Assembly: GCA_041674105.1 (NCBI GenBank) | Contig: JBAYWK010000001.1 | Location: 167,114 to 231,113 of the forward strand | Reading direction: 5' to 3' | Origin: Minisyncoccota bacterium | Lineage (GTDB): Bacteria; Patescibacteriota; Minisyncoccia; Phycocordibacterales; DATDWN01 | DNA length: 64,000 nucleotides | Part shown: positions 3,437-28,405 of the stretch, piece after piece | Numbering within the stretch: the first letter of the stretch is position 1 | Layout: each line of letters starts with the position of its first letter | The notes under the pieces: model-generated | What the model was told of the DNA's origin: nothing | Databases searched by the model: none | What the model saw: only the letters and a program-made list of their open reading frames with translations | Program-made: the position numbers and the translations under genes

Positions 3437-3443
3437 TGTTAAA

Positions 3444-7011: not shown

Positions 7012-7021
7012 AAAAGAGGCC

Positions 7022-9035: not shown

Positions 9036-9380
9036 TTAAAGAGGTAAGTCAAAAGCTAAAAATCCTGGACCTGTAAAAACAAGAGAAAGGAGAATTATTA
9101 TAACCACTATATGCATACCCATATCTGGTTTTTTGTCTGAATATTTTCTATCTAAATAGTAGTTTAACTTTGCCAGAGCAATTCCAAGGAGAGCAAATAT
9201 TTGTGTAAAAAGTCCGATAAATATAAAAAAACTAAATACTATATACAAAATAGAAAGCCATTTTAATGACTTGTTGTATCTTTTTATACCGTATTTTAAT
9301 CCTATAAGAGCAACGGTTATTCTAAGCAAAAAAGGCGAAATCAATCCAAATGATAATAAGAAAGGAAAAAGTGAAAGCAT
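9036..9380 (-). CDS. hypothetical polytopic membrane protein
   Basis: 114 aa, three to four hydrophobic helices. Confidence 0.45.
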   Translation of the reverse strand: MLSLFPFLLSFGLISPFLLRITVALIGLKYGIKRYNKSLKWLSILYIVFSFFIFIGLFTQIFALLGIALAKLNYYLDRKYSDKKPDMGMHIVVIIILLSLVFTGPGFLAFDLPL

Positions 9381-9410
9381 AGACTCTATTTTAGAAGTTT
9401 TTTTCTATAT

Positions 9411-12936: not shown

Positions 12937-12965
12937 ATAAAAAACTACCTTAGGGTAGTTTTTTT

Positions 12966-13316
12966 GGTAGGAATCTCCCTCAAAAAATCATTTGCCGTCG
13001 CAAGTGATTTTTCTGGGCACCGGTTTGTCGACAAGCTCTGCCGATTTTGTAGACCTCAAATCTCTTCGATTCTGAAAGGGTGCTTTGGCAATGAAAATAC
13101 ATTAGATCCCTAACGAAAAATAGGCTAACGATTCTCAGTAGGAATCTTCCGCGAGTAAAATTTTGCCGTCGCAAAATTTTCTCGTGTCCGCAGCTCGCGA
13201 CCCATCGTGTTCGATGGGTACCCCGCTCCGCTTTTCGATTCCTAACGAAAAGCAATAACATTGCTTTTCTCCGGGAGCACAATATAAAAAACCCAGAGAT
13301 GGGTTTTTTTATATTG
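12966..13316 (-). repeat. tandem pair of GC-rich tRNA-trailer miniature elements downstream of tRNA-Arg(GCG). Each is bounded by a direct copy of the tRNA 3' end GGTAGGAATC: A1 at 12976-13147 and A2 at 13148-13316
   Basis: GGTAGGAATC occurs at 12966-12975, GTAGGAATC at 13139-13147, and again within the tRNA at 13324-13333. A1 carries the 65-nt conserved core at 12976-13043, shared with the elements at 22116 and 26050. A2 carries a degenerate copy. The track's 127-aa ORF at 12980..13363 is an artefact of this region. Confidence 0.6.
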
Positions 13317-13388
13317 TGCTCCCGGTAGGAATCGAACCTACATTTTAACTTCCGCAAAGTCATGTCCTATCCATTGAACGACGGGAGC
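13317..13388 (-). tRNA. tRNA-Arg(GCG)
   Basis: Hand-folded. Acceptor GCTCCCG/CGGGAGC, T-arm GTAGG-TTCGATT-CCTAC, anticodon loop TTGCGGA. The 3' end forms a roughly 25-bp perfect palindrome with the downstream sequence. Confidence 0.7.
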
Positions 13389-13415
13389 AAGTGGAAAAAG
13401 ATTATCACAAACAAA

Positions 13416-13871
13416 CTAAAAACCAAAATAAATCAAAAATTTTGTTAAAAAAGATTCAGTGTGAGTAACTTCTTCTAAATAATTGGATAGTAGATCCTTA
13501 ACATCTTCTGGCTCAACATCTTTTATTAATATAATTATATAAGAGGATACTGTTTTTTTTGGCAGGATTATTATCCTAGGGAATTTGTCTTTTGTTTCAA
13601 CCCAAAATGATTCTAAGTCGCTATAAGGGTAATATGTTTGTCCCATATTTATTCCTTTTTCATTTATCTTTATCTCAATATTTTCGGGTCTTCTTGATGC
13701 GTATAGGGTTAATATAGACATTGAGACAATTATCAAAATAGCAAAGATAATATTGTTTAAGATTATAGCTACTAAAGCTATAGACACTGTTATTATCCCA
13801 ACTATCCAATACCAATCAGAGTTTTTTTCTGAGTGTATATATTCAGGAGCAATCCAATTTATTTTTTCCAT
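13416..13871 (-). CDS. membrane protein with two N-terminal TM helices and a bacterial PH-like (YdbS-like) topology
   Basis: 151 aa. Hydrophobic hairpin followed by a soluble domain. Confidence 0.4.
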   Translation of the reverse strand: MEKINWIAPEYIHSEKNSDWYWIVGIITVSIALVAIILNNIIFAILIIVSMSILTLYASRRPENIEIKINEKGINMGQTYYPYSDLESFWVETKDKFPRIIILPKKTVSSYIIILIKDVEPEDVKDLLSNYLEEVTHTESFLTKFLIYFGF

Positions 13872-13875
13872 ATAT

Positions 13876-14322
13876 TTATTTTAGCACTTTTAAGGGTTTC
13901 ATGTGCGAAGCTATGCCTATGGCACAGGTTATAAGTGCAATATTTTTAATTATATATTGTCCCTCTAAAGTTGGAATCATAAAACGGCTCCATGATATTT
14001 GTTGTAAAAAGAATAGAGGCAAGGCGGTGGTTATCATATGTATAAAAAGTAGGGGAATTACAACTCTTTCTAACTTTGGAACCAAAAATAAAATACCTAT
14101 TAGCATTTCAAATAGGCCAAATAAAATAATAAATAGTTCAAAAGACATAAAAGGGAGTGTTTTTGACAATAAATCACTTACAAGAGGGTTTGCAGGACTT
14201 TGGTCTATTATTTTTAAGAACCCAAACCAGAAATATATTATAAATAAACTCAGTCTAGCCACGGGGACAGATATTTTTTTAAAGAAATTTATTAAATGTA
14301 TATCTAATAATTGTATGTTCAT
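13876..14322 (-). CDS. DUF417/YkgB-like small polytopic membrane protein
   Basis: 148 aa, four helices. LFIIYFWFGFLKI-type motif. Confidence 0.35.
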   Translation of the reverse strand: MNIQLLDIHLINFFKKISVPVARLSLFIIYFWFGFLKIIDQSPANPLVSDLLSKTLPFMSFELFIILFGLFEMLIGILFLVPKLERVVIPLLFIHMITTALPLFFLQQISWSRFMIPTLEGQYIIKNIALITCAIGIASHMKPLKVLK

Positions 14323-14323
14323 A

Positions 14324-15580
14324 TTATCTTATTTTTGTTATATCTCTCGGGTAAAAAATATCTAGTGTCCATTCAAAAGCAATATGTATTCTTTTTTCCC
14401 ACGACAAAAATTTGAACAAATAAACCGTTCTCCAGATCCACCATGCTATTTTTCCAGAAATCACAAAACTAAATATTTTTCCAGCGGCAAACCATTGTCC
14501 CAAAGAGACCAGTGTTCCTTTTGATTTATAAATAAATTTGGAAAGTTTTTTGTTTTTTATACTAGCTATTATGTTTCTGGCTACAATTTTAGCTTCACTA
14601 ACAGCTACTTGAGCAAGCATTGGTGGTGGAGGATTTCCATTTAGTTGAGTAACGCAGGCACTGTCTCCTAGGACAAAAATGTTTGGCATATCTATCATTC
14701 TCAAAAACTCATCTGTTTCAAGTCTTCCTCCAACGAATTTCGCATTATGCTCCATACATTTTGGAGTAGAGGGAGTAACTCCTGTTGCCCAAACTATAGT
14801 ATTGGCAGATAAAGTTGATTCATCTGAAAAGTGGATCGTTCCGGGAGATACAGATGAAACCATTTTGCTTAGAAGGAGAGTTACTCCCATTTCTTCCAAT
14901 CTCTTAGCAGCTATTTTTTGTATTTTTGGGTGAAAAGGTTTTAGTATTTCAGGTCCTGTATTTATAAGAGATATAGATATATCTTTAACATGATACTTTT
15001 TATCACCTTTGTAATATCTATTTTTTATTTCACAAGCAAATTCAGCTATTTCAGATACCGTTTCTACTCCAGTAGCACCTCCTCCAACAACCACAAAAGA
15101 TAAAAGTTTTTTCCTTTCATTCTCATCTTTGGTCAAAGTAGCTTTTTCAAAAGAATCAATAATAGATTGCCTAATGTTTACAGCATCCTCTAAGTTTTTT
15201 AGGCCGAGAGAGTTTTCTTTTGCTCCTGGAATGTTATAGTAGTTTGTTTCAGCTCCTGTAGCCAAAACAACATAGTCATAAGGTATCTCACAGTTTTCTG
15301 TCTGGATTACCTTTTTTGAAGTATTTATTGAAATAACAATATCTTGGTATATTGTTATACCTGTTTTTTTAAATATTTCTCTTAGAGCTTCTGAAATACT
15401 GGTTGGATGAAGTCCTCCTGTGGCTACCTCGTGAAGTAGTGGGGTGAATAAAAAATAATTTGTTTTATTTATTAAGGTTATGTCTAAAACACCTTTTTTA
15501 ACATAGGGAATAAGGTATTTTGCCGTATAAAGACCTCCAAAACCTGCCCCAACTATGACGATATGCGGTTTAGTAGACAT
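14324..15580 (-). CDS. ndh: type II NADH dehydrogenase (NDH-2) / FAD-dependent pyridine nucleotide-disulfide oxidoreductase
   Basis: Two Rossmann motifs, IVIVGAGFGGL and FVVVGGGATGVE. 418 aa. Confidence 0.75.
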   Translation of the reverse strand: MSTKPHIVIVGAGFGGLYTAKYLIPYVKKGVLDITLINKTNYFLFTPLLHEVATGGLHPTSISEALREIFKKTGITIYQDIVISINTSKKVIQTENCEIPYDYVVLATGAETNYYNIPGAKENSLGLKNLEDAVNIRQSIIDSFEKATLTKDENERKKLLSFVVVGGGATGVETVSEIAEFACEIKNRYYKGDKKYHVKDISISLINTGPEILKPFHPKIQKIAAKRLEEMGVTLLLSKMVSSVSPGTIHFSDESTLSANTIVWATGVTPSTPKCMEHNAKFVGGRLETDEFLRMIDMPNIFVLGDSACVTQLNGNPPPPMLAQVAVSEAKIVARNIIASIKNKKLSKFIYKSKGTLVSLGQWFAAGKIFSFVISGKIAWWIWRTVYLFKFLSWEKRIHIAFEWTLDIFYPRDITKIR

Positions 15581-15586
15581 AAAAAT

Positions 15587-15997
15587 TTAGGCGCCTAATT
15601 GGCGAATTAGAATATAAATATCCAAACTATAATAACCAGCTCCAACTAAAAATAGAACAGAAAGACCGGCCAATATTATTAAATCCATTTCCCACCCTCC
15701 TTTCTCAGAAAATTTTTTTCGCCATACTTTTATTTTAATATAGATTGCTCCCAGCATTATTATCATAAGACCTAAGGCAGCGTATTGAGTTAGAAAACCA
15801 ATCATTAAGGCAATAGCACCTAGAGGCTCAACAATAGACAGAAGTCTATTTATGTTTATCATAGATTTAGATATTTGCTCATCTGGCCTCATTTTCCACA
15901 TCCTAAGTTTTTGTATGCCGTGAACTAGAAAAGAAGCTCCTATAGCCAGTCTAAGAAAAATCAGACCGTAATCTATGTATAAATAAAGTGTTTCCAT
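15587..15997 (-). CDS. DoxX-family membrane protein
   Basis: RLAIGASFLVHGIQKL motif. 136 aa, four helices. Confidence 0.55.
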   Translation of the reverse strand: METLYLYIDYGLIFLRLAIGASFLVHGIQKLRMWKMRPDEQISKSMININRLLSIVEPLGAIALMIGFLTQYAALGLMIIMLGAIYIKIKVWRKKFSEKGGWEMDLIILAGLSVLFLVGAGYYSLDIYILIRQLGA

Positions 15998-16040
15998 ATT
16001 TTTTAGTTAAGTATAATTGAATAATTATACCTTAATTTTT

Positions 16041-16715
16041 CTATTTTTCTATATAGGATTTTGTATATTCGTAAAGAGATGACCAAAAAGCTCCAGCGAA
16101 AGAGGCTACAACTAATTCTTCTATTGGTACACCTAGTATAAATAAACCCGAGATATTTTCCAGGTTATAAGAATATTCTACTAAACCTTCAAAAATCAAA
16201 TTTATTAAAACAAAAACTAAAAAATAAAAACAACTAAAAACAACAGAGGTTACAAATATTTGCTTCCATAAGTCCCTACGATGATAAATTATAAATATAG
16301 ATCCTAACCCCGAGATGACTACTAGGCCGTAAATAGCTTTTGTGGGGTAAAAAATAGAAAAGATTATTATTGAAATAGCTGTAGTTAGTACAGGGTAGTA
16401 ATTTTTGGTAGCAGAGCGATTTATTTTTACTAATTTTTTCTTAAATAGGAATTCATAAATAACTGATGCTATACCAGCCATAAAGAAAAAGAATATGAAA
16501 CTTTCTATTCCAAAACCGTATTTTTCTATCAAACCAAAAAGGGAGTCGGGTTTCCAGTATTGTGGAACCAAAAAATAGTCAAAAAAGCCAAAAGGTAAGC
16601 CAATAAAACTTGCCCACAACATTTCTTTCCTCAAATCTTTTCTTTTTATATAAATGAATAGCCAAAAAAGCGAAAGAATAAAACAGCCTGTAATATATGC
16701 ATATGGATAAGACAT
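16041..16715 (-). CDS. polytopic membrane protein (possibly lycopene-cyclase-domain-like)
   Basis: 224 aa, about seven helices. LGVPIEEL motif. Confidence 0.35.
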   Translation of the reverse strand: MSYPYAYITGCFILSLFWLFIYIKRKDLRKEMLWASFIGLPFGFFDYFLVPQYWKPDSLFGLIEKYGFGIESFIFFFFMAGIASVIYEFLFKKKLVKINRSATKNYYPVLTTAISIIIFSIFYPTKAIYGLVVISGLGSIFIIYHRRDLWKQIFVTSVVFSCFYFLVFVLINLIFEGLVEYSYNLENISGLFILGVPIEELVVASFAGAFWSSLYEYTKSYIEK

Positions 16716-16872
16716 TTAAATAAGTATAATTTTTTTGTGGTATTCATTGTACAAAATTCGAATGTATTTTGAAAGTAACCCTGATGCCGACTAAACGACT
16801 TAGGATGCGGATTAATTCCGACAAAAAGTATTTTTGGTTTTTTGTATCTATAAAGGATTATGTGTGTCTTTG

Positions 16873-17214
16873 CTATTTCTCCAAAATGGTTTTTAGAGTC
16901 AATGCTTCGTTGTGCTCCATATCTTTCGCACCGTACACGAGCGTGACCATTCCTTTCTTGCCCAGGCGTTTGAGTTCCGCGAGCAGGTCGGTTTTTGACT
17001 TGAGTTCGCGCCTGTATTTCACTTGGAACGTCGTCCATCGCTTCGGATCGTGACCAAACCACTTCCGCAACTCGGTGCTCGGGCCGATATCTTTAAGCCA
17101 CATATCTATCGCTGCTTTTTGTTTCGTAAGGCCACGTGGCCAAAGCCTATCTACTAAAATTCTTCTGCCGTCGTTTTTTGTAGGCTTCTCGTATACGCGT
17201 TTAATTCTTATCAT
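16873..17214 (-). CDS. DUF488 family protein (YeaO-like)
   Basis: MIRIKRVYE...RILVDRLWPRG...WFGHDPKRW. GC-rich, around 50%. Start trimmed to avoid overlap with the next gene. Confidence 0.6.
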   Translation of the reverse strand: MIRIKRVYEKPTKNDGRRILVDRLWPRGLTKQKAAIDMWLKDIGPSTELRKWFGHDPKRWTTFQVKYRRELKSKTDLLAELKRLGKKGMVTLVYGAKDMEHNEALTLKTILEK

Positions 17215-17221
17215 AGTGTAA

Positions 17222-17935
17222 TTAATATCCGCTAAATTCTTCAGTCCTGATATTGTCTTCATTGGCGCCGGCTTTCATCAGCATCTCGCGCATTGCTTTG
17301 ACCATGCCGACAGGCCCGGACAAGTAATAGATCGGGATGGCGATGTCCAGTATGTACCGCTTTAACATGGCGTCGTCGATATACCCACTCTCTCCACTCC
17401 ATTCGGTTTCGGGAGTATCGGTATAGACGGGGATAAATATGAAATTCTGATTTTCTTTTGCAAAGCCTACCATGTCTGCCGTAAAGGCCGCGTCAGCTGG
17501 GGTTTTGTTAGAATACAAAAGTGTTATCTTGTGTGGCAGGTGGTCGTGCGATGCCTGCGCGATAATGCTTCGTACTGGCGTGATGCCGATGCCGCCAATC
17601 AGGAAGACGGCTGGCGTGGTCTCGTTCTTATGAAGTTTGAAATCTCCATACGGAGCGTCAAATTTTACTTCCGTACCAATGGGAAGATTTTTAAGTACAC
17701 GCTTAAAGGCGGTATCCCGCATACGCGTTGCTGTCACGATATTACTTTCGTATGGTGCGTGAGCGAGAGAAAAACCTCTTGTATTTCCTTCTTCATCGGT
17801 CTCGGGAGGATTGATCAAAGTAATATCGCAAAATTGTCCGGCGACAAATTCGAATCCGGCTGGCTTTTCCCAATAGAAAGCCATTGTACCGTTTGCAATT
17901 TCTTCTTTTTTTGTGAGCTTTATATTGTATATCAT
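17222..17935 (-). CDS. ferredoxin-NADP+ reductase-like FAD/NAD(P)-binding oxidoreductase
   Basis: RGFSLA FAD motif and GGIGITP NAD motif. GC-rich. Confidence 0.6.
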   Translation of the reverse strand: MIYNIKLTKKEEIANGTMAFYWEKPAGFEFVAGQFCDITLINPPETDEEGNTRGFSLAHAPYESNIVTATRMRDTAFKRVLKNLPIGTEVKFDAPYGDFKLHKNETTPAVFLIGGIGITPVRSIIAQASHDHLPHKITLLYSNKTPADAAFTADMVGFAKENQNFIFIPVYTDTPETEWSGESGYIDDAMLKRYILDIAIPIYYLSGPVGMVKAMREMLMKAGANEDNIRTEEFSGY

Positions 17936-17989
17936 GTTATTTTTATGGTTATTTTTTAAACTTCGTTTGAGAATATATAATTTGTCCAT

Positions 17990-18198
17990 TTCTTACTTTT
18001 AAAAAAGACGTGAGTCGATATCTTGTGGCAGAAGTGCAGTTCATGATGTCGTGCACAAGCCAACCCTTTGCGGAAATTTGAATTCCGATTTGTTGCGGTG
18101 ACGATTGCTGGAACTTTGAACCGATAATACGGCTTAGTTACAGCAATGTTGATAAAATTATACGAAAATTAAGGCGAATATACCAAGAAAAGCCGGAC
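17990..18198 (-). repeat. copy 1 of a roughly 200-bp paralogous leader/intergenic element (5' of the oxidoreductase gene, begins at the NUDIX stop)
   Basis: About 70% identical to 18796-19006. Shared blocks TTCTGAGCAAA, GATATC, TTTTATCAACA and ATCGTCACCGC. Confidence 0.5.
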
Positions 18199-18768
18199 TT
18201 ATTCGATATTCCTACTTTTGCTCAGAAGATTTACTAATTTCCTCAACCTCCTCGTCTCAGAAAGCTTGGATCCTGCAAGCCGGGTAGAGGCACCAGTGGA
18301 GGCTATAAGAGTGGCACGCTTGAGCTCCGTCAGTTGGAGTTTCGAAAGATAATCAGTGATCATCTTTCGCGCGGGCGGATTAAAACCACTATATGCTTCT
18401 CCGGCGATGTAGTCTTTTATCGGAACCCAACGCCATTCAGAAAATTTCTCCGGTTCCATGAGCTTGGCTTCTTGATCAGTTGTGCAGTAGAACATCAACA
18501 CCACATCTCCTTCTTTCGCTCCAGGAACTTCGCCAATAAAATCTAAAATTTTCAAATCTGTAATATTAACCTCTTCAGCCGTCTCTCGGCGAAGAGTTTG
18601 CTCGATGGTCTCTCCCAAATCTGATCTACCTCCTGGAATTGTCCAAACGGAAATTTTCTTCCACTTGTCGGGCGTATAGTGGCGATGTCCGGTTAACACT
18701 TTGCCGTCTTTTACAATGACCGCAATCGGACAGGTGATTTCATCTCCTTGTTTTGTAAGTTGTTCGTT
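18199..18768 (-). CDS. NUDIX hydrolase
   Basis: Nudix box GGRSDLGETIEQTLRRETAEEVNI. Start set to MNEQ; the track's start is GTG. Confidence 0.75.
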   Translation of the reverse strand, partial: NEQLTKQGDEITCPIAVIVKDGKVLTGHRHYTPDKWKKISVWTIPGGRSDLGETIEQTLRRETAEEVNITDLKILDFIGEVPGAKEGDVVLMFYCTTDQEAKLMEPEKFSEWRWVPIKDYIAGEAYSGFNPPARKMITDYLSKLQLTELKRATLIASTGASTRLAGSKLSETRRLRKLVNLLSKSRNIE

Positions 18769-18795
18769 CATAGTTCGAATCCCATCAGGGTTCAC

Positions 18796-19006
18796 TCATT
18801 TTATCACTTTTCGGTTTTGAAATGTAGCGCAAAATAAGGGAATTTTAATTGCCACTTTTCAAAACTACTGGCGGTGACGATGTCCCGAAGTTAGAACCAA
18901 TGAGAACGCTTCATTTCAGCCGTGTTGATAAAATTGTACGTGATTTACGGCAAATTTACAGAGAAAACCCAACCTGCTTTGATATCCCCGGATTTGCTCA
19001 GAAAAT
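18796..19006 (-). repeat. copy 2 of the roughly 200-bp paralogous leader element (5' of NUDIX, begins at the deacetylase stop)
   Basis: See copy 1. Confidence 0.5.
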
Positions 19007-19726
19007 CTATTGAGGACGAGCTTTCTGTAACAACTCGGACACTGTCACAAACGTATATCCTTCCTGCTTAAGCGCATCAATTATAAGCGGTAAAGCTTGG
19101 CGTTGTTCGCCACAGGTATCACACAGGGGGTGTAAAAGAATAATGGAACCAGGCCTTGTGTTCTCAATTGCATTGCTCACGAAGAATTCGGTGGTAGTGC
19201 CATAAGTGTCAGGCTCAACATCCCAAATAACCGTTGCTATATCGTGCTTATCCAGATACCACGGTAAGCCCAAGAGTTTCTTACTGTTTGGAGGACGGAA
19301 TGTAATCTTTCCCTCATATCCAGCCTGTCGAATAAGGCGATTTGTGGTTTGGATTTCATTATTTATGAAATCTTGCGATTTGAAGATTATTCTTTGGTGA
19401 GAATATGAATGGTTTCCAAGCTCGTTTCCGTTGGCAACTATCTTTTTTGTTAGATCGGGATATTTTTCGATTTGCTGACCAATTGCGTAAAACGTCGCGG
19501 TTACTTGTTTCTGTGCGAGCACATCAAGCACTTCATTCGTATAAGCAGTCGGCGCATCATCAAAGGTGAGTGCGACCACTTTTTCATCTGTGTCTACTCT
19601 TGTTATCAACACTCCAAAGACCTGATACGTCCTGGAATTCATGAGTTTGTAAGTGCCATACAAGACGACTATCACCGCAAGCAGTATCGCAATTACAATC
19701 AGAAATAGTTTAAAAAATTTATGCAT
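19007..19726 (-). CDS. polysaccharide deacetylase (NodB homology domain), N-terminal TM anchor
   Basis: VALTFDDAPTAYT...ATFYAIGQQ...GNHSYSHQ. Confidence 0.75.
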   Translation of the reverse strand: MHKFFKLFLIVIAILLAVIVVLYGTYKLMNSRTYQVFGVLITRVDTDEKVVALTFDDAPTAYTNEVLDVLAQKQVTATFYAIGQQIEKYPDLTKKIVANGNELGNHSYSHQRIIFKSQDFINNEIQTTNRLIRQAGYEGKITFRPPNSKKLLGLPWYLDKHDIATVIWDVEPDTYGTTTEFFVSNAIENTRPGSIILLHPLCDTCGEQRQALPLIIDALKQEGYTFVTVSELLQKARPQ

Positions 19727-19744
19727 AATTCTAATTTGCCCATT

Positions 19745-19834
19745 TGGCGGAGGAGGTGAGATTCGAACTCACGGTCCCCGTAAAGAGACTCCTGTTTTCA
19801 AGACAGGTGCAATCGGCCACTCTGCCACTCCTCC
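19745..19834 (-). tRNA. tRNA-Ser(TGA) copy 1, CCA encoded
   Basis: Class II tRNA. Anticodon loop CTTGAAA, long variable arm, T-arm GTGAG-TTCGAAT-CTCAC. Confidence 0.85.
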
Positions 19835-19868
19835 ATATTTTATATTATCTTTCCACTGTTTCTACTGT
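19747..19868 (-). repeat. 122-bp direct repeat copy 1 (tRNA-Ser plus 34 bp of its 5' flank), identical to 22277-22398
   Basis: Visible identity through ...ccatattttatattatctttccactgtttctactgt. Confidence 0.8.
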
Positions 19869-19872
19869 TATA

Positions 19873-20454
19873 TTATTTTCTCACAATAAAATGAAAAACA
19901 TGCCAGTGCTTCATATCTCCCTTTGCTGTTGGTCTGTCTGCTTCTTCTTCCTTAAAATCAATAATCTCTAAACCATTCAAAAACTTTTCTGCCTGTTCAC
20001 GAGTCTGAAAATTCATCTTGTGATCTGGAACATTCCACTCATCTTTTTCACCGAAAAATTGTCCGGTAAGTATTCCACCGGTTTTAAGTGAAGAAGTGAT
20101 TGATTTGAAAACTCTTTCAAAAGTGTTTTGTGGATTGAATGGTAAAGAGTATTGTGCATTTATGAGATCGTATTTGTCTTCAACAAAATCAAAATCCTCA
20201 AAAGTACTGATAACATATGAGACAATTTCTGGTGGAAAGTTTTGAATGATGTCTTGAGCAAGAGGTTTACTGTCTACAGCATTAATATGTTTAAAACCTT
20301 TTGAAACGAGGAACTTTACGTCATTCAATGCACCAGAGCCTAAATCCAATGCTTCATTTTTATCATTCACAAAATCCACCGCCTTAACGAGTAGAGGTCG
20401 TGGCTTTATGTCCTTTGTCCGTTCAAAGTATTCTTTCCAAGTATTTTCTGACAT
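19873..20454 (-). CDS. class I SAM-dependent methyltransferase
   Basis: Motif I LDLGSGALND. 193 aa. Confidence 0.6.
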   Translation of the reverse strand: MSENTWKEYFERTKDIKPRPLLVKAVDFVNDKNEALDLGSGALNDVKFLVSKGFKHINAVDSKPLAQDIIQNFPPEIVSYVISTFEDFDFVEDKYDLINAQYSLPFNPQNTFERVFKSITSSLKTGGILTGQFFGEKDEWNVPDHKMNFQTREQAEKFLNGLEIIDFKEEEADRPTAKGDMKHWHVFHFIVRK

Positions 20455-20543
20455 AGTTGCATATTAGCACATAGTTTTTGATAAAGAAAAAGTCCCACCG
20501 TTCGCATTTCGCTACTAGGTGGAACTTGATTCACGGCCGATCC

Positions 20544-21794
20544 TTACGGATGAGTAATGAAAGTGTACTGGCGTTCGGGACTGAGGAGAGCAACTACTTC
20601 CTCCATCTGCTCGAACGTAACCTTTTGCAGATTGTCCCAGACCTCCTGCATGGGAATGATTCGATGATGGTTAACCAATTCACCCGCACATTCTCCACAC
20701 AGACCTGCTCCAGAATGATCGATCATGAGACACTGCTTGATGCAGGACTCGAGCTTGCGATCAAAGAGATCACGCCGTGATGGAACCATTGAGATGCACT
20801 TGCGTACAAGCTCGTTGATATATGGCGTAGCTTCTGGACTGATCTGCCCCTCGATCCGATACTCGCAGACATCCTGTAAATCCTCGAAGTCGATACCGAT
20901 GCTGTATGCGAGTCCACGTTTTTCGCGAACTTCGTCAAACAGAATCTTTCCGAGAACATTGTTGAACACCCTGCGTGCTTGTCGAGGAAAATCTAACGGA
21001 AACGCCCACGTTGCTTTGTAGCCCGTCTGATCAACCTTGAAGTTGACGTGGTCGGACATCTTCACTGTGTGAGACTGTTCCATTGGGATTGCAAATTGAT
21101 TGAACATTGAAGGAATAGGATTTCTCCGTCCCTCCTTTTGCTTTCCAAACGGACTCCGTTCAAGCTCGGCGATTACTTCTTCGGTCGTGAGACCTCCGAG
21201 AATTACCAAGCTCATGTTGGCTGGCGTGTAGTGTTGGTCGTAGAAACCTTGCAGGTCAGCTTCCGTTGCCGAAAGAAAACCCTCAGGACGACCAAGTGGA
21301 CGATTGTACGTTTCGAGACGATGCCCTTTGAAAAGCGATCGTCGTATTGTCATATCCCATTCCAATTTTTCAAGGAATGGGTACCGCTGATTGAACTCGC
21401 GGTAGATGACTTTACGTTCTCTTTCAATATCCTTTTCGAGACGAGCTTCGAGAAGCATCGAACCGAAAATTGAAATTACTTCTCGAAATGTCGACAAATC
21501 TGCTGGAACAGCAAACTTGTATCGAGTTGAGAGGTAGTTGGTCCTACCATACTCCGCTCGACCACCAACGCTCTCGATAAACTGCTTCACCGAGTCGTGT
21601 GTACGATTCGGAATGTTTTGACTGACACAATGTTCAACGAAGTGAGCGACACCAGGCATCTTGACCTGATCTTCGCGTGCTCCGCTGTGAACGACGATCT
21701 CCATTCTAATCCAAGGACGATCCTGGGACATCGAATGAATTTCAAGACCGTTCGGAAGAGCACATTTGTTGAAACCTACATACGGATCGTACAT
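20544..21794 (-). CDS. M16-family zinc peptidase (pitrilysin-like)
   Basis: HFVEH zinc motif plus downstream ERERKVIYREF glutamates. GC around 48%, clearly above the genome background. Confidence 0.75.
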   Translation of the reverse strand: MYDPYVGFNKCALPNGLEIHSMSQDRPWIRMEIVVHSGAREDQVKMPGVAHFVEHCVSQNIPNRTHDSVKQFIESVGGRAEYGRTNYLSTRYKFAVPADLSTFREVISIFGSMLLEARLEKDIERERKVIYREFNQRYPFLEKLEWDMTIRRSLFKGHRLETYNRPLGRPEGFLSATEADLQGFYDQHYTPANMSLVILGGLTTEEVIAELERSPFGKQKEGRRNPIPSMFNQFAIPMEQSHTVKMSDHVNFKVDQTGYKATWAFPLDFPRQARRVFNNVLGKILFDEVREKRGLAYSIGIDFEDLQDVCEYRIEGQISPEATPYINELVRKCISMVPSRRDLFDRKLESCIKQCLMIDHSGAGLCGECAGELVNHHRIIPMQEVWDNLQKVTFEQMEEVVALLSPERQYTFITHP

Positions 21795-22095
21795 TTCTTC
21801 TCCTCTTTTTCGTGGTGAATTTGATGGTTACAAAGAATTTAGTCCATGCCTATTTTAGCACACTTAATGCCACTATGTCAATAGCACCCTTGTTTTTCCA
21901 TAAAGAGCGAGTACTGAAACTTGAACAGTTTTCTCTCTATGCTTCGGATTACGTTTCTTTATTCACTCGCATATATCAACTACTCGAAAAGTATCGGATG
22001 ACTGATGAGCTGACTGGAATAGGAATAGGTGTCAGGTACCGTTTTTTTACTTCAATCTCAAAAAATTAAAAACACCCCGAAGGGTGTCTTTAATT

Positions 22096-22277
22096 TGCGG
22101 AGGAGGTGAGAGTTTCTCCCTCGAAAAATCACTTGCCGTCGCAAGTGGTTTTTCTGGGCACCGGTTTGTCGACAAGCCCTGCTGGGCTCGTAGACCGACA
22201 AACCGTTCGAATCTCACCCGAAAAACTTTCAGTTTTTCTTCCACCCAAACAAAAAACACCTAACGGTGTTCTTGTTT
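22096..22277 (-). repeat. tRNA-trailer miniature element B downstream of tRNA-Ser copy 2, bounded by a 15-nt direct copy of the tRNA 3' end (gcggaggaggtgaga at 22096-22110)
   Basis: Conserved core tccctcgaaaaatcacttgccgtcgcaagtggtttttctgggcaccggtttgtcgacaagc at 22116-22176. Inverted copy of the Ser T-arm ccgttcgaatctcacc at 22201-22216. Confidence 0.6.
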
Positions 22278-22364
22278 GCGGAGGAGGTGAGATTCGAACT
22301 CACGGTCCCCGTAAAGAGACTCCTGTTTTCAAGACAGGTGCAATCGGCCACTCTGCCACTCCTC
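22278..22364 (-). tRNA. tRNA-Ser(TGA) copy 2 (identical body, CCA not encoded)
   Basis: Identical to copy 1. Confidence 0.85.
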
Positions 22365-22375
22365 CATATTTTATA

Positions 22376-22591
22376 TTATCTTTCCACTGTTTCTACTGTA
22401 TATTTTTTTGCCACAAAATATATATAAATAATATCCAATATGGCGAAAGTATTTATAATCAATAAAATAATGAACCATTTTTTCTGGGAAAGTTGCGCTG
22501 ATTTCCATAAAGCAAGCCCTTTCCAAGGTAATGTCCATACTAATACTGCTGCAATTAGCCAAGGATTTATTGTTAACATTTCTGTTGACAT
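22376..22591 (-). CDS. small two-helix membrane protein (about 72 aa)
   Basis: MSTEMLTINPWLIAAVLVWTLPWKGLALWK... Confidence 0.35.
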   Translation of the reverse strand: MSTEMLTINPWLIAAVLVWTLPWKGLALWKSAQLSQKKWFIILLIINTFAILDIIYIYFVAKKYTVETVER

Positions 22592-22655
22592 GCACACATA
22601 ATACCAGAAATAAGGCTTAATGCAATGTTTTAGTTTTTGGTATACAATGGCTTTT

Positions 22656-23048
22656 ATGAGGCATTTAGGCATAGATTTTGGGACAAAAAGGGTTGGGCTA
22701 TCTATATCAGATGATCAAGAGAACATAGCTTTTCCTCTTTCTGTTATAGAAAATTCAGATCATTTGGTAGATGATATTGTTTCAATTTGTTTAGAAAAAG
22801 AAGTCAGAGGTGTTGTGGTGGGGGATTCAAAGGATTTTTCTATGAAAGATAATCAGGTTATGAAATATGTAAATATTTTTGTTGCAGATTTCAGAGAAAA
22901 AATAAATATTCCAGTGTTTTTTCATCCAGAGTTTTTGACTTCTTTAGAGGCCAAGCAGATACAGGGTAAAAATGATATGTTAGATGCTTCGGCAGCAACG
23001 ATTATGTTACAAAGTTATTTAGACACACAAAAAAATGATATCAATTGA
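22656..23048 (+). CDS. ruvX: Holliday junction resolvase-like RuvX/YqgF
   Basis: MRHLGIDFGTKRVGLSISD. Confidence 0.75.
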   Translation: MRHLGIDFGTKRVGLSISDDQENIAFPLSVIENSDHLVDDIVSICLEKEVRGVVVGDSKDFSMKDNQVMKYVNIFVADFREKINIPVFFHPEFLTSLEAKQIQGKNDMLDASAATIMLQSYLDTQKNDIN

Positions 23049-23361
23049 TGATTTTAAAAAAATAGAAATAAAAATAGGACAAATATTGAGTGCGGAAAAA
23101 GTAGAAGATACAGACAAGTTGTTAAAATTGTCTGTTGATTTTGGGGAAGAAGCTCCTAGGCAAATAATTTCAGGAATATCTTCTTATTTTGAAGACACAA
23201 AAGATTTGGTTGGCAGAAAATGTGCATTTGCTACAAACTTAGAGCCACGCACTATAAAAGGGCTAGAAAGTCAGGGTATGATCCTAGCTGTTTCTGGAGA
23301 TAATTTTTTTTCATTGTTAGAAGTTTCGGTAAAAGTTTTACCGGGCAGTCCTATAAGATAA
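23035..23361 (+). CDS. stand-alone tRNA-binding protein (Trbp111/CsaA-like; homologous to the MetRS C-terminal domain)
   Basis: IDDFKKIEIKIGQILSAEKVEDTDKLLKLSVDFGEEAPRQIISGI. Confidence 0.7.
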   Translation: MISIDDFKKIEIKIGQILSAEKVEDTDKLLKLSVDFGEEAPRQIISGISSYFEDTKDLVGRKCAFATNLEPRTIKGLESQGMILAVSGDNFFSLLEVSVKVLPGSPIR

Positions 23362-23404
23362 AAATAAGTACACTTATTAAAAGTATTTTAGTATAATAAG
23401 GTTA

Positions 23405-24370
23405 ATGGTTTTTAAAAAAATTTTTGACACACTCCCTCCTCCAAAATTACTAAACATACCATATTTTGCGGTGTCTGTTTCTGATAAGAATATTCGTTGC
23501 ATATATCTTTCAAATCGAGGTCAAAAGATAGAACTTGTAAAATCCTCGGAGTACTCTATTCCAGAAGGAGTTATATCTGGAGGTCATATAGAAAATATGG
23601 ACGAGTTTTCCAATATATTGAAAAAAATAAAAAAAGAATTTGGTTTAAATTATGTAAGAATGTCTATTTCTGAAGAGAAGGCTTATCTTTTTAAAACTAA
23701 AATACCAATAGTGAAGAGAAAAGAGGTCCGTGATGCAATAGAGTCCACTCTAGAAGACAATGTCCCTGTGCCTGCAGAAGAGCTTGTCTTTGATTTTGTT
23801 GTAAATGACAAGACGGATTTAGATGATAGTTTAGATGTTGTTGTGGTAGCTCTTCCTGTAAAAATAGTTGACTCTTATGTAGAAGCTGTTTCTAAAGCCG
23901 GACTTTCAATGATTTCTTTGGAAATTGAATCACAAGCTATTTCGCAATCTCTTTTATCTCGTAATGATAGAAATACTAATATAATAATTTATCTTAATGA
24001 TGAAAAGATGTCTGTCTATGTTGTCAATAACTCTATAGTCCATTTTACCTCCACTACTTCTATAAAAGGGAATATAAAAGATAATGTCCCTTTTATTTCT
24101 CAAGAAGTAAGAAAGATTAGAACATATTGGAAATCCTTAGAGGGTAGTTCTTCTGAAGACAGTATAGAGGAGGTTATAATTTGTGGAGATTTTGTAGAAG
24201 AAGATGTCATATCACAGATATCGGTAAATATAAAAATGCCGGTAGTCCTTGGTAATGTGTGGACCAATGTATATAATTTAGATAAGTCTGTCCCAGATAT
24301 TTCTTTCAAGGATTCTTTAAAATTTGCTCCGGCTATAGGCTTGGCTTTGCCTGAAGATCTTTTAATTTAA
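23405..24370 (+). CDS. pilM: type IV pilus assembly protein PilM (actin-like ATPase fold)
   Basis: Size, position upstream of pilN/pilO, and PilM-like N-terminus. Confidence 0.6.
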   Translation: MVFKKIFDTLPPPKLLNIPYFAVSVSDKNIRCIYLSNRGQKIELVKSSEYSIPEGVISGGHIENMDEFSNILKKIKKEFGLNYVRMSISEEKAYLFKTKIPIVKRKEVRDAIESTLEDNVPVPAEELVFDFVVNDKTDLDDSLDVVVVALPVKIVDSYVEAVSKAGLSMISLEIESQAISQSLLSRNDRNTNIIIYLNDEKMSVYVVNNSIVHFTSTTSIKGNIKDNVPFISQEVRKIRTYWKSLEGSSSEDSIEEVIICGDFVEEDVISQISVNIKMPVVLGNVWTNVYNLDKSVPDISFKDSLKFAPAIGLALPEDLLI

Positions 24371-24376
24371 ATAAAA

Positions 24377-24916
24377 ATGTTTAATTTAATACCAAAATCA
24401 GCAAAAAAGATAATTTCAAAGGATTATAAAATAAGGAGATGGGTTGTTGTTTTAACTTTTGTAATATTTGTTCAGCTTTCTCTTATGGTTTTTTTGCTAC
24501 CATCTTTGGTTCTATCATATTTTAAAGACAAAGATCTTTCAGAAGAAGTTCAGTCTGCAAAAGAGTCAGTTTTATCTAAAGATGCCGCAGCTATCTCTAA
24601 AGTTATTACTTCTACAAATACAAGCTTAGATTTGTACGAAAATCTTTTTTCCTATCCTCAGGTGGTGCCCCAGATAAATAAAATAATTTCTTATAAAAAC
24701 CAGTCTTTAAAATTTACAGATTTTCTTTACCAGTCTACAGGTACTTCAACCTCTCTAATAACTGTGAGGGGGATAGCTAGTACCAGAGACTCTTTGGTTT
24801 TGCTTGTGAGAAATCTTGAAGAATCAGGAGTTTTTTATAATGTTGATTTGCCAGTGAGTAATTTAGCAAAAGATAGAAACATTGATTTTTCTGTGAGTCT
24901 TTATTTTAAAGAATAA
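24377..24916 (+). CDS. pilN: type IV pilus assembly protein PilN
   Basis: MFNLIP N-terminus (the NLLP motif), single TM. Confidence 0.6.
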   Translation: MFNLIPKSAKKIISKDYKIRRWVVVLTFVIFVQLSLMVFLLPSLVLSYFKDKDLSEEVQSAKESVLSKDAAAISKVITSTNTSLDLYENLFSYPQVVPQINKIISYKNQSLKFTDFLYQSTGTSTSLITVRGIASTRDSLVLLVRNLEESGVFYNVDLPVSNLAKDRNIDFSVSLYFKE

Positions 24917-24918
24917 AA

Positions 24919-25467
24919 ATGAATACTTATTTTTTCAAAAAAACAATAGCCATTTATTCTATAATAGTGATAGCTCTGTTGGGTTTACATATTTTTGTTT
25001 TTTTAAAAATAAAAAATTACAATCAAAGTATCGCTTCTTTTGAAAACGAACTAATCGTCCAGAAGGATAGGCAGGAAAAGATGTTTTATATGAATCAAAT
25101 TATTGATCAAAATAAAACTGAAATAGATTTAATAAAAAATTCTGTTGTATCAAAAAATGGTAATGTAGAGTTTATAGAAACAATGGAATCTCTGGCAAAA
25201 AATAATAATCTCTCAATAGAAATACAATCTTTGTCTTTTGAACCAGATCCGACTTTAAACAAAGATGAAATGGTTTTCTTTAAGATAAAGGCTTTGACTA
25301 AGGGTTCTTGGATCAATATATATACATTTTTATCCCAGATAGAAGCATTACCTTTTTCTATTAGAGTAGACAATATGGCTGCCGTATCTTCTTCTTCAGA
25401 TTCCCAAAATGGTATAAAGTCTGAGTGGCAAATGACTCTTGATATTAGAGTCTTAAAGTATAAATAA
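24919..25467 (+). CDS. pilO: type IV pilus assembly protein PilO-like
   Basis: Single TM, coiled coil. Gene order pilMNO. Confidence 0.45.
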   Translation: MNTYFFKKTIAIYSIIVIALLGLHIFVFLKIKNYNQSIASFENELIVQKDRQEKMFYMNQIIDQNKTEIDLIKNSVVSKNGNVEFIETMESLAKNNNLSIEIQSLSFEPDPTLNKDEMVFFKIKALTKGSWINIYTFLSQIEALPFSIRVDNMAAVSSSSDSQNGIKSEWQMTLDIRVLKYK

Positions 25468-25468
25468 T

Positions 25469-25795
25469 ATGGAAGATTTAATTAAAAAAATAAAGAGTTT
25501 TTATAGTTCAAATAAAAAAATTTCTTATGAGAAGAAGGGTATAAATCCTAAAAAAGATTGGATAGGTATTTTAAGCGTAGTTTTTATTGTTTTGGTTTTA
25601 GGAGGGATCTTTACTATTTATTTTTATATTCAAATAAACAATAGCTCTCTTTTTAAAGAAAATTACGAAGAATCTAGTGTTACTGTTTTAAATAATAAAG
25701 CTTTAGATAGGTTTGTAAAAAATATAAATGATAAAAAAGATGTTGTTCAAAGTATAAAAGACGGGAGAATGGCAATGTCTGACCCGTCAGAGTAA
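25469..25795 (+). CDS. small single-TM protein, last gene of the pilMNO cluster
   Basis: 108 aa. Translationally coupled to the upstream gene. Confidence 0.4.
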   Translation: MEDLIKKIKSFYSSNKKISYEKKGINPKKDWIGILSVVFIVLVLGGIFTIYFYIQINNSSLFKENYEESSVTVLNNKALDRFVKNINDKKDVVQSIKDGRMAMSDPSE

Positions 25796-25836
25796 TCTTT
25801 TCTGTTTTTTAAAAATATGTTAATCTGTCTATGTTT

Positions 25837-25908
25837 GCTCTCGTAGTTCAATGGATAGAACAGAGCTCTTCTAAGGCTTTGATGTAGGTTCGATTCCTGC
25901 CGAGAGCA
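25837..25908 (+). tRNA. tRNA-Arg(TCT)
   Basis: Acceptor GCTCTCG/CGAGAGC, T-arm GTAGG-TTCGATT-CCTGC, anticodon loop CTTCTAA. The 3' end lies within a 24-bp perfect palindrome at 25899-25952. Confidence 0.85.
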
Positions 25909-26066
25909 CAATTAAAAAAATCCCCTTGGGGATTTTTTTAATTGTGCTCTCGGAGAAATAGTCCGGGAGACTGTTTTGTCAGGAATCGAACGGTTTGTCG
26001 ACAAACCGGTACCCAGAAAAACACTTGGGGCGGCAAGTGTTTTTTCGAGGGAGATATCCTGCCGAG
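25909..26066 (+). repeat. tRNA-trailer miniature element C downstream of tRNA-Arg(TCT), ending in a direct copy of the tRNA 3' end (tcctgccgag at 26057-26066)
   Basis: Inverted T-arm copy caggaatcgaacgg at 25980-25993. Conserved core in reverse orientation at 25990-26055, with the GTCGAC palindrome and the AAAAACACTTGGGGCGGCAAGTGTTTTTT hairpin. Confidence 0.6.
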
Positions 26067-26180
26067 GACATGTTATTTTATGTTAAAATTATTAAACAGA
26101 TAATTTTTTGCTTGTTATGCTACTTACTTTAACGGTGCAAGAAATATTGTAAGAAATATCATAAAATTTAGTCTTGAAAT

Positions 26181-26693
26181 ATGAAAGACCTGGAGAAAAA
26201 AGAAAAAAACAATAATAAGGAAATTTTTGAAAGCTTATTTCAAGAGTATTCTTCTGTGGTCTATCGTCTTTGTTTGTATAAAACTAGCAAAGAAATAGTG
26301 GCACAGGATTTAACTCAAGAAACTTTTTTACGCTTGTGGAAGACAATGTCTTCTAGTAAAGAAATATTTAAACCAAAACAGTATATTTATCAAATCGCTA
26401 GGAATTTGATTGTAGATTATTATAAGTCAAATAAAACCATTTCTTTAGATGAATTGCAGGAAGAAGGTTTTGATCCGAAAATAGAACAAAGTTCACCAGA
26501 AATTTTGTCAGAGATTTCTCTTTTGAAAGAAGTCATTGAGAGTCTGGATACAGAATTTAGAGAAGTTATATATATGAGATTTGTAGAAGGTTTGGGAGTC
26601 TCAGAAATATCTGAAATATTAGATATTTCTGAGAATCTCGTCTCAGTCAGAATCAGTAGGGGTAAAGAAAAGTTGAAGGATAAATTTTTATAA
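26181..26693 (+). CDS. ECF-type RNA polymerase sigma factor (sigma-70 regions 2 and 4)
   Basis: Region 2 ...LTQETFLRLWK... Region 4 HTH EVIYMRFVEGLGVSEISEILDISENLVSVRISRG. Confidence 0.8.
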   Translation: MKDLEKKEKNNNKEIFESLFQEYSSVVYRLCLYKTSKEIVAQDLTQETFLRLWKTMSSSKEIFKPKQYIYQIARNLIVDYYKSNKTISLDELQEEGFDPKIEQSSPEILSEISLLKEVIESLDTEFREVIYMRFVEGLGVSEISEILDISENLVSVRISRGKEKLKDKFL

Positions 26694-26694
26694 T

Positions 26695-27492: not shown

Positions 27493-27586
27493 GATTTTTT
27501 TAAAAATAAAGTCTTGGACCATGTACAATAAAAGTACAGTAGAATAAGTCGAAATTACTGATAAAACATAGATAAAATATAACTTT

Positions 27587-28318: not shown

Positions 28319-28355
28319 GATGACTGTGAGTTTATAAACTGAAAACTTAAAACAA

Positions 28356-28388
28356 TAAAACTGCCATTTAGGCAGTTTTATTGTTTTG
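28356..28388 (+). terminator. rho-independent terminator (AAAACTGCC-attt-AGGCAGTTTT)
   Basis: Hairpin followed by a T-run. Confidence 0.6.
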
Positions 28389-28405
28389 CATACTAGAATC
28401 TATTC

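Follow-up and report, generated by a model that had tools for sequence, protein, structure and literature searches.

The stretch of DNA considered here, hereafter the window, comprises 64,000 nucleotides (nt) assigned to a Minisyncoccota bacterium, and it is part of ENA contig ERZ27247358:k141_584348, a contig of 109.5 kb from a MEGAHIT metagenome assembly. On its minus strand lie two tRNA-Ser(TGA) genes, identified by both ARAGORN and Rfam, inside a direct repeat of 125 nt whose copies are 99% identical, and behind these tRNAs stands a series of genes that forms a variable segment (Table 1). The resident part of the locus consists of the DUF5652 gene, tRNA copy 2, a hairpin, a structured element that we call E and a second hairpin. 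Downstream of it come the genes for an M16 peptidase and a methyltransferase dependent on S-adenosylmethionine (SAM), a second junction between a DUF5652 3′ end and a tRNA (copy 1), and then three cassettes. We think it probable that positions 16730-22268 represent a strain-specific pile-up of horizontally acquired genes at a Patescibacteria (Paceibacterota-type) tRNA-Ser(TGA) hotspot.

A preliminary description of the locus had divided these genes into two GC-rich islands, each placed immediately 3′ of one tRNA copy. The six gene identities that it proposed are all supported by Pfam. With the GC content at third codon positions (GC3) of 60 host open reading frames (ORFs) of the window as the reference (mean 0.239, standard deviation 0.034), five of the six genes stand out at z scores of 5.2-8.7: the DUF488 gene (GC3 0.54, z 8.7), the M16 peptidase (0.49, z 7.4), the FNR-like oxidoreductase (0.48, z 7.0), the NUDIX hydrolase (0.44, z 5.8) and the deacetylase (0.42, z 5.2). 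GC content is not uniform across the window, and the claim of GC-rich blocks holds for these five genes; it fails for the methyltransferase, which is host-like (z 1.3). The placement of genes directly behind each tRNA is also right in one case and wrong in the other. The ATG of the deacetylase, at 19726, is 18 nt from the end of tRNA copy 1, as had been described, but M16 does not abut copy 2, from which it is separated by the structured element of ~155 nt and a spacer of ~270 nt with a strong promoter-like site. The supposed second island is heterogeneous, combining a conserved Paceibacterota family (M16) with the host-like methyltransferase. An ORF of 81 amino acids (aa) at 21824-22069 has no match in Pfam, and the NUDIX ORF reaches 198 aa by read-through, as against 145-147 aa in its homologues.

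Table 1. Features of the variable segment and its tRNA-side flank, in window coordinates.
Feature	Position	Strand	Basis or remark
Whole variable segment	16730..22268	.	Limits are homology break-points against the close relative L007
DUF488 protein, third cassette	16873..17262	-	Pfam; 41-nt overlap with FNR-like gene
FNR-like oxidoreductase (NAD_binding_1), third cassette	17222..17989	-	Pfam
D2a, second inter-cassette repeat	18097..18237	-	72% identical to D2b; ends ...CGTCACCGCAA
NUDIX hydrolase core	18333..18771	-	Pfam; ORF reads through to 18199
NUDIX cassette leader	18772..18869	-	90.6% identical to native 3′ flank of tRNA-Ser(CGA) in L014
D2b, inter-cassette repeat	18870..19010	-	Ends ...GGTTCTAACTTCGGGACATCGTCACCGCCA (degenerate partial tRNA-Ser 3′ end)
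Polysaccharide deacetylase (Polysacc_deac_1)	19007..19726	-	Pfam; 18-nt leader after CCGCCA
Direct repeat copy 1	19744..19868	-	DUF5652 3′ fragment (8 codons + stop), spacer, tRNA
tRNA-Ser(TGA) copy 1, derived copy	19745..19834	-	ARAGORN, Rfam; CCA encoded
SAM-dependent methyltransferase	19873..20454	-	Pfam; host-like composition
M16 (pitrilysin-family) peptidase, Peptidase_M16	20544..21794	-	Pfam; GC 0.48
Promoter-like site TTGACA-18-TG-TAAAAT upstream of M16	21852..21881	-	11/12 consensus matches; consensus match only
Second terminator-like hairpin, after E	22065..22093	-	
18-nt third copy of tRNA-Ser 3′ end (TCTCACCTCCTCCGCAAA), 3′ end of E	22094..22111	-	Includes 3 nt of trailer
Element E, structured tRNA-like "shadow" of tRNA-Ser	22094..22251	-	~155 nt; fold z-score -9.2 against shuffles
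Terminator-like hairpin with A and U tracts	22250..22274	-	Directly after tRNA copy 2
Direct repeat copy 2	22275..22399	-	tRNA, 10-nt spacer, last 8 codons + stop of intact DUF5652
tRNA-Ser(TGA) copy 2, resident copy	22278..22365	-	ARAGORN, Rfam; followed by GCAA (CCA not encoded)
DUF5652 gene, host flank	22376..22591	-	Pfam PF18893; 3′ end inside repeat

The variable segment and its state in relatives

The limits of the segment were set by alignment with L007, one of the related loci to which we refer by such handles. Its positions 1-3407 align to 13333-16729 of the window at 84% identity and its positions 7060-10658 to 22269-25870 at 90%. Homology on the tRNA side passes through tRNA copy 2 and 8 nt beyond, reaching 22269, and the variable segment begins 9 nt past that tRNA. 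At the distal boundary, near 16730, the sequence has a CCGCA motif only, with no clear partial tRNA.

Relatives were retrieved through look-ups of PilM homologues; a PilM scan of a genome collection gave L003 only. Five related lineages keep the flanks NDH2 ... tRNA-Ser-DUF5652-RuvX-PilM, and every relative has one tRNA-Ser, followed by different cargo or by none; the single tRNA that had been predicted for relatives is what they have, and the second copy is absent from them. In L007, L010 and L011 (PilM 90% identical), the cargo comprises MarR, LUD and glyoxalase genes, a methylase fragment and an ORF of 135 aa; in L017 it is an acetyltransferase and a DNA-alkylation repair gene, and in L018 a PIG-L gene that is rich in AT. 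L019, though 99.5% identical to L018, is without the PIG-L insert, having ~480 nt of non-coding sequence from tRNA-Ser to NDH2. The insertion or deletion that distinguishes them (L018 2377-3347 versus L019 2372-2420) is an 873-nt gene between 49-nt direct repeats; the repeat in L018 covers the start of NDH2 and the sequence upstream of it, and this repeated promoter region has its analogue in the tRNA repeat of the window. L003 (PilM 62% identical) has at least 8.9 kb at 45-52% GC behind tRNA-Ser, encoding HtrA, ClpB-like and HSP20 proteins, an ECF sigma factor, a DUF2975 protein and a large serine recombinase. The 3′ side of tRNA-Ser(TGA) is a hotspot of variable cargo. The comparison with relatives, together with GC3, bears out the view that the segment is strain specific, compositionally foreign and located at the 3′ end of this tRNA.

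Three side observations belong with these comparisons. By eye, the L003 set at 605-8772 (HSP20, ClpB-like ATPase, HtrA-type protease, ECF sigma) resembles protein-quality-control or heat-resistance islands. In L019, a GC-rich segment of ~230 nt upstream of NDH2 (2425-2660, minus strand) runs from a promoter-like TTGACA...TAGTAT to a strong terminator hairpin and is a candidate for a small RNA or a leader; it has no Rfam match at E <= 0.1. Finally, the window holds a second tRNA-adjacent variable segment, of host-like GC, at 25910-28400 (compared with L003 12514-12938), where an ECF sigma gene, a DUF5667-like gene and a 243-aa ORF that follow tRNA-Arg(TCT) are absent between tRNA-Arg(TCT) and tRNA-Val of L003.

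Repeats are classic points of chimerism and the source is a MEGAHIT metagenome contig, so it has to be asked whether assembly or binning joined two strains or genomes through an identical tRNA sequence. The 125-nt repeat is, however, shorter than the final k-mer given in the contig name (k141), so that junction k-mers bridge it. The gene order is matched by the consecutive NCBI proteins MFA7216563-69, entered as 'Candidatus Paceibacterota bacterium', on a separately deposited contig of 245 kb, and the flanks are host-like at both ends of the segment. In a second sample (SRR6484325), one unitig spans 22142-19839 and another 22370-25870, the first entering a repeat copy by way of the methyltransferase and the second by way of DUF5652. 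Both end exactly 30 nt into a repeat copy, which is expected of a k=31 graph if the repeat has two upstream contexts in that sample too. The deposited gene order and these unitig ends make a chimeric join unlikely. An assembly artefact is thus an unlikely source of the two-tRNA arrangement, and for the fusion of two strains or genomes in particular we see hardly any likelihood. A metagenome scan with an exact 53-nt tRNA-Ser pattern returned one 1-kb contig, which was uninformative.

The duplicated tRNA and element E

The spacing of the direct repeat is 2,531 nt, and its length, 125 nt in a repeat search, extends to 143 nt at 96.5% identity by BLAST. Both tRNAs are identical, the sole difference in the tRNA unit being the base after the discriminator (GCCA in copy 1, GCAA in copy 2). 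The 34-bp 5′ flank that had been reported as part of the repeat, and taken for a promoter, is present; it consists of the final 8 codons and stop of DUF5652 (…TVETVER*) plus 10 nt of spacer, and only weak promoter-like matches fall within it. A DUF5652 gene is called at the position corresponding to 22376..22591 in L006, and it adjoins tRNA-Ser in L007, L017, L018 and L019. In the window it is intact at copy 2 only; at copy 1 a fragment of it comes after the methyltransferase, whose last codons and stop lie within the diverged outer 18-20 nt of the repeat. Since DUF5652 is intact only at copy 2, we regard that copy as the original and copy 1 as derived from the resident junction. The right edge of the repeat coincides with the tRNA 3′ end, where cargo differs between alleles, and the left edge falls at an arbitrary point inside coding sequence, its outer part diverged.

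Three routes to such a duplication can be considered. The preliminary description saw in it the classic signature of island acquisition, with the tRNA regenerated each time, that is, two successive integrations at the tRNA-Ser 3′ end in which attP restored the tRNA and the integrases were lost later. The position at the tRNA 3′ end, the foreign composition, the variability among relatives and the partial tRNA 3′ ends in the region are all in keeping with such a history. Classic integration, however, duplicates only the 3′ part of a tRNA. Here the repeat takes in the entire tRNA and at least 34 nt of upstream DUF5652 sequence, with the tRNA 3′ end as its limit, which is the reverse of what an attL/attR pair looks like. 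A fragment of the host's upstream gene is not something that an attP would hold, and the island itself is cut into single-gene units by the repeat that we call D2 (see below). Because the whole tRNA is repeated along with an upstream coding fragment, we infer that the second full tRNA did not arise by duplication of an att site: the tRNA would not have been regenerated by attP, and the resident junction would have been copied downstream. Integrase-driven islands of the classic kind therefore strike us as quite improbable here.

A second route is Campbell-type insertion, in which a 2,531-bp circle with the DUF5652′-tRNA junction, E, M16 and the methyltransferase on it underwent homologous recombination with the tRNA region already in place. 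Such an event would create a direct repeat, and the reverse reaction can delete the circle. Repeats of 123 identical nt do flank exactly one unit at the spacing of 2,531 nt, and there are parallels in the 49-nt repeat at the PIG-L insertion or deletion (L018 versus L019) and in a 45-nt repeat that bounds an insert in L021. Yet the circle could form only in a prior genome with the methyltransferase upstream of the tRNA. Moreover, E and its hairpin are resident beside the tRNA in relatives, so that the insert would have to carry a second set or replace them, and an illegitimate junction is more in keeping with the divergence seen in the repeat's outer 18-20 nt. Campbell insertion is the main alternative to the route that we prefer, but we consider it improbable.

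The third route, and in our view the most likely one for a full tRNA duplication within an accreting hotspot, would be the joining in tandem of two alternative hotspot alleles. Allele A would have been tRNA-E-M16-methyltransferase, and allele B a tRNA with encoded CCA followed by the cassette array. The join could have combined a homologous anchor on the lycopene-cyclase side with an illegitimate or microhomology junction that connected the methyltransferase 3′ end to the DUF5652 3′ end, for example after uptake of DNA from a sibling strain.

The resident junction brings with it element E. From its 5′ end, E is composed of an acceptor-like 5′ strand, hairpin 1, the sequence GUGAG-AUUCGAA and a hairpin with an AGCA loop; its 3′ part continues with GGUGCCCAG, a hairpin with a GACG loop, GAGGGAGA and, lastly, a tRNA T-stem and acceptor 3′ strand. 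The 18-nt copy of the tRNA 3′ end with which E terminates has four matches in the window, a number reached by none of 100 shuffles. E resembles tRNA (Rfam RF00005) and tRNA-like RNAs in its acceptor-like closing stem, in T-stem strands identical to those of the neighbouring tRNA, in the UUCGAA motif and in its placement directly behind a tRNA gene. It differs in having no D arm and no anticodon arm, and in carrying a two-hairpin module of ~110 nt in place of the T-loop. ARAGORN makes no call there, and Rfam has no matching family at the gathering threshold or, when the element is searched on its own, up to E=10. The candidate identities picked out by eye (tmRNA, SRP RNA, 6S RNA, RNase P RNA, Y RNA and known ribozymes) found no support, the tests being the Rfam and ARAGORN searches.

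In the L007 homologue of E, three hairpin stems have been exchanged for different complementary sequences and the AGCA and GACG loops are kept. The alignment of E shows double changes in 15 of its 27 predicted pairs, from only five sequences, and the structure is thus kept by compensatory changes at orthologous sites. A hand count of the pair table (nine G-U against five A-C) weakly favours the tRNA strand as the strand of E. In L018 the covariance model places E behind both tRNA-Ser and tRNA-Arg, and in L019 behind tRNA-Ser; a further match, in L020, is weak and has no tRNA called nearby. The relatives with an orthologous E by this model have a PilM 58% identical to that of the window. Behind the tRNA-Ser of L017 and L019 stands the 5′ half of E, and these two loci also share the arrangement of tRNA-Ser followed by a hairpin. 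Occurring as it does at orthologous tRNA sites in relatives, E is best seen as an old, conserved companion of the tRNA and not as imported DNA. A scan of viral sequences with a pattern for the E core gave no match.

Further E-type units occur elsewhere in the window: two in tandem after tRNA-Arg(GCG) (12963-13279, minus strand), one after tRNA-Arg(TCT) (25945-26072, plus strand) and a short variant after tRNA-Lys (8712-8790, minus strand). Each of these units comes after a long hairpin, and none has an Rfam match. All E units have the two-hairpin module in common, and in each it is enclosed by copies of the acceptor and T-stem strands of the tRNA beside which the unit lies.

Cassettes, their ends and their sources

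What had been described as the first island is a series of three units, namely the deacetylase, the NUDIX hydrolase, and the FNR-like and DUF488 genes together, split by two D2 repeats. Past the CCA of tRNA copy 1, the order is an 18-nt leader, the deacetylase, D2b, a leader of ~100 nt, NUDIX, D2a, and the FNR-like and DUF488 genes. The last ~30 nt of D2 align, with a 5-nt insertion, to the stretch of tRNA-Ser genes from the T-loop to the 3′ end, placing degenerate partial tRNA 3′ ends at 18870-18905 and 18097-18130. The repeat terminates in CCGCCA or CCGCAA, and the next cassette always begins directly after it. A division into two islands does not hold up in the face of these features, since att-like remnants lie elsewhere (at 22094-22111 and at the two D2 ends) and D2 cuts the first island into three cassettes.

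Copies of D2 are not confined to this genome. Besides the two in the window, there are two in L021, one in L014, and three full copies and one partial copy in L037, and each comes after a single ORF. In other Patescibacteria the units of cassette plus D2 follow either a real tRNA-Ser or another D2, and the deacetylase-D2 and NUDIX-D2 units are also found in unrelated members of the group. The deacetylase cassette of L021 (79% aa and 76% nt identity to that of the window) has D2 on both sides, and the nucleotide homology of the two cassettes starts at CCGCCA. L021 also has a perfect 45-nt direct repeat, made up of the last 5 nt of tRNA-Ser(CGA) and 40 nt of flank, around an insert of 1,990 bp. 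The 106 nt that follow tRNA-Ser(CGA) in L014 match the NUDIX leader at 90.6% identity and stand before a different gene, which is then followed by D2. In L037, D2 copies separate single genes (NUDIX, a 183-aa ORF and a methyltransferase) within 2.5 kb. Between NUDIX and D2 there is, in addition, a conserved short reading frame (window 18238-18332, minus strand, ...LKRATLIASTGASTRLAGSKLSE...; L037 6206-6331, minus strand, an ORF of 41 aa), which in the window is joined to NUDIX by read-through.

On our reading, which draws on these sequence alignments, D2 would be the conserved end shared by a family of cassettes with a pseudo-tRNA-Ser terminus. The other candidate for D2 is a gene of ~50-60 aa on the opposite strand, for example for a regulator or an antitoxin, that travels with the cargo and gives the cassette appearance incidentally. 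Translated on that strand, D2 yields a 47-aa peptide ending in FAQKIY*, which a search of 1.8 billion proteins found as the C-terminus of 74 clusters of short ORFs; the frame is kept open in these clusters, a 12-nt indel is in frame, and D2 has no predicted RNA structure, all of which would suit a small gene. Neither the start codon nor the N-terminal part behaves as one would expect of such a gene, however: the former is not conserved, and the N-termini of the 74 clusters are unrelated, conservation beginning at GGCGG, the reverse complement of CCGCC. The conserved part, in other words, has its limit precisely at the tRNA-like CCGCC, and its final 30 nt can be aligned to a tRNA-Ser 3′ end. 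Substitutions between the two window copies show no clear bias to third codon positions (11/13/17 by position), the L014 copy has an internal stop, and Pfam finds no match to the peptide. We therefore doubt that D2 is a small gene. We also considered and dropped a structured-RNA or attC-like D2, since folding predicted no structure; on either strand D2 folds no better than shuffles (z -2.2 to +1.4, with the weak -2.2 for one copy). A scan of viral sequences for the D2 terminus pattern gave no match.

Where the cargo came from can be answered in part. More than 100 homologues of the M16 peptidase, each exactly 416 aa long and 60-86% identical, carry the labels Parcubacteria, Paceibacterota or Taylorbacteria. 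The gene also stands alone as a GC-rich gene at 8001-9251 of L013 and of L014/L016 (0.46-0.49, against 0.27-0.39 around it), with differing neighbours; either it has been transferred repeatedly or its composition is held high by selection. The deacetylase family is spread across Patescibacteria. The NUDIX hydrolase belongs to a cluster of 19 sequences at >=90% aa identity, one of which comes from an unrelated genome of 55% GC (L012). There it lies in a patch of 42-49% GC (2584-7446) that also holds an IS1595 transposase, an HNH gene and a restriction-modification pair of the DpnII type. The 90% clusters of the FNR-like and DUF488 proteins contain this genome only. The search for donors suggested at the outset thus traced M16 and the deacetylase to lineages within Patescibacteria and NUDIX to a relative in a 55% GC genome, and left the FNR-like and DUF488 genes untraced. 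Since M16 and the deacetylase are Patescibacteria families, exchange looks to be largely within the phylum. GC content alone does not identify a donor, and the idea that the GC-rich genes are foreign because they come from outside the phylum was rejected for these two. Well apart from the segment, a lone ORF of 50% GC at 2572-3375 (plus strand; 267 aa, GC3 z = 7.9) has a signal-peptide-like N-terminus and no Pfam match. Its neighbours are tsaE and a gene for a PilB-like ATPase, and it too was probably imported as a single gene.

As for mechanism, we suggest that the last bases of tRNA-Ser are the target into which cassettes are inserted by site-specific recombination. Each would bring a pseudo-tRNA end that re-creates the target, with the consequence that later arrivals could stack up. 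An excised cassette would be expected to join its D2 end to its own leader, for example ...CGTCACCGCCA then AATGGGCAAATTAG. The recombinase would act in trans. A large serine recombinase (72% nt identity) and a helix-turn-helix/DUF2975 module (78% nt identity) are common to the islands of L003 and L021. The recombinase has 13 relatives in IMG/VR contigs, and in three of these 13 contigs a tRNA-Ser(TGA) stands at the contig end, 0.9-2.9 kb from the recombinase. The enzyme, lying beside tRNA-Ser in related islands, is the best candidate for action in trans, but the case for it is circumstantial and has no tie to D2. Neither D2 nor E was found in the 13 recombinase-bearing viral contigs by tblastn, nhmmer or the covariance model.

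A number of points weigh against the accretion of mobile cassettes as we have presented it. No strain was found that has just one of the alleles A and B, which makes the tandem joining of the two pure inference, and no excision or circular junction was observed. The junction core that is shared amounts to only 5-6 nt (CCGCC/A) and is weak by itself. Pfam detects no recombinase or integrase in any ORF of 16730-22268 (the preliminary description had likewise reported that no integrase remains) or among the other window ORFs scanned. Large serine recombinases normally neither need nor create long repeats, and D2 may consequently serve another enzyme or be no recombination site; its open opposite-strand frame, with an indel of 12 nt that keeps the frame, means that a small protein could still be encoded there. 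The methyltransferase (GC 0.35, GC3 0.284) looks native. M16 is GC-rich in every genome examined, and its composition alone is therefore no proof of recent import. Lastly, all of the relatives compared are metagenome contigs.

Comparison with known systems

Bacteria of the Patescibacteria have tiny genomes and few recognised mobile elements, and gene exchange among them is poorly known; the locus offers a concrete and testable case. If D2 is a recombination site, it provides a handle for cataloguing a mobile gene pool and for tracing the enzyme responsible for its movement. The tandem tRNA would show how two alternative island alleles can merge, and E adds several conserved, unannotated structured elements beside tRNA genes. 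Full-text literature searches on integrons or cassettes in the candidate phyla radiation and on tRNA islands in Patescibacteria returned nothing relevant.

Tentatively, we raise the possibility of an undescribed integron-like cassette system of Patescibacteria that is anchored at a tRNA and, as a separate matter, the equally tentative one that E represents structured RNA of a new class or else a structured site in the DNA. In such a system, single-gene cassettes (deacetylase, NUDIX, methyltransferases and others), each with a D2 arm of ~140 nt, may insert serially at the last bases of tRNA-Ser and circulate between distant members of the phylum, and the recombinase that moves them may act in trans and be, possibly, the large serine enzyme found beside tRNA-Ser.

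Like classical tRNA-anchored islands, the segment lies directly 3′ of a tRNA, is atypical in composition and is absent from close relatives; unlike them, it holds no integrase within 16730-22268. With regard to att-type repeats the likeness is equivocal, for the large repeat takes in a whole tRNA, and partial tRNA 3′ ends, short or degenerate, are present at 22094-22111, 18870-18905 and 18097-18130. Prophages and integrative elements with large serine recombinases at tRNA-Ser are paralleled by L003, L021 and the three IMG/VR contigs, which place the recombinase 0.9-6.8 kb from tRNA-Ser, whereas the window itself is without such a gene.

The closest framework is that of the tycheposon islands of Prochlorococcus, which in a streamlined genome occupy fixed tRNA genes, tRNA-Ser(TGA) among them (10.1101/2020.12.28.424599). 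There, successive integrations push older elements deeper and leave partial tRNAs and degenerate remnants scattered; most islands are without an integrase-bearing element, and a minority of the elements use a large serine recombinase (10.1101/2020.12.28.424599). Our locus has in common with them a hotspot shared by strains, full and partial tRNAs, and element remnants. It differs in that the window has no integrase or replication module (in L003 and L021 a recombinase occurs with no replication module identified), in the single-gene cassettes with a conserved repeat of ~140 nt, in the duplication of a full tRNA with a fragment of the upstream gene, and in its host, a member of the Patescibacteria.

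The resemblance to cis-mobilisable elements (CIMEs) is of another kind. CIMEs lie next to the integrative and conjugative elements of streptococci and show accretion at att sites; those known use fda or tRNA 3′ ends and tyrosine integrases and consist of units of several kilobases. Here, too, DNA with att-like repeats and no integrase is arranged in tandem at a single chromosomal target and would presumably be mobilised in trans, but the units are only ~0.9-1.3 kb.

With integrons the locus shares tandem single-gene cassettes that end in a repeat, one primary site, and a cassette common to different genomes. IntI, attI and Pc are absent, however, and D2 is conserved in sequence and has no predicted fold, whereas integron attC sites are conserved in structure. 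Some of the cassettes have a promoter-like leader of their own, and the primary site is the 3′ end of a tRNA, the cassette array beginning at the CCA of tRNA copy 1. The accretion of islands at tRNA genes is well established, and nothing in this locus overturns current ideas; what it adds is an accretion hotspot in Patescibacteria with a whole tRNA in tandem, a recurrent inter-cassette repeat and unannotated elements that shadow tRNA genes.

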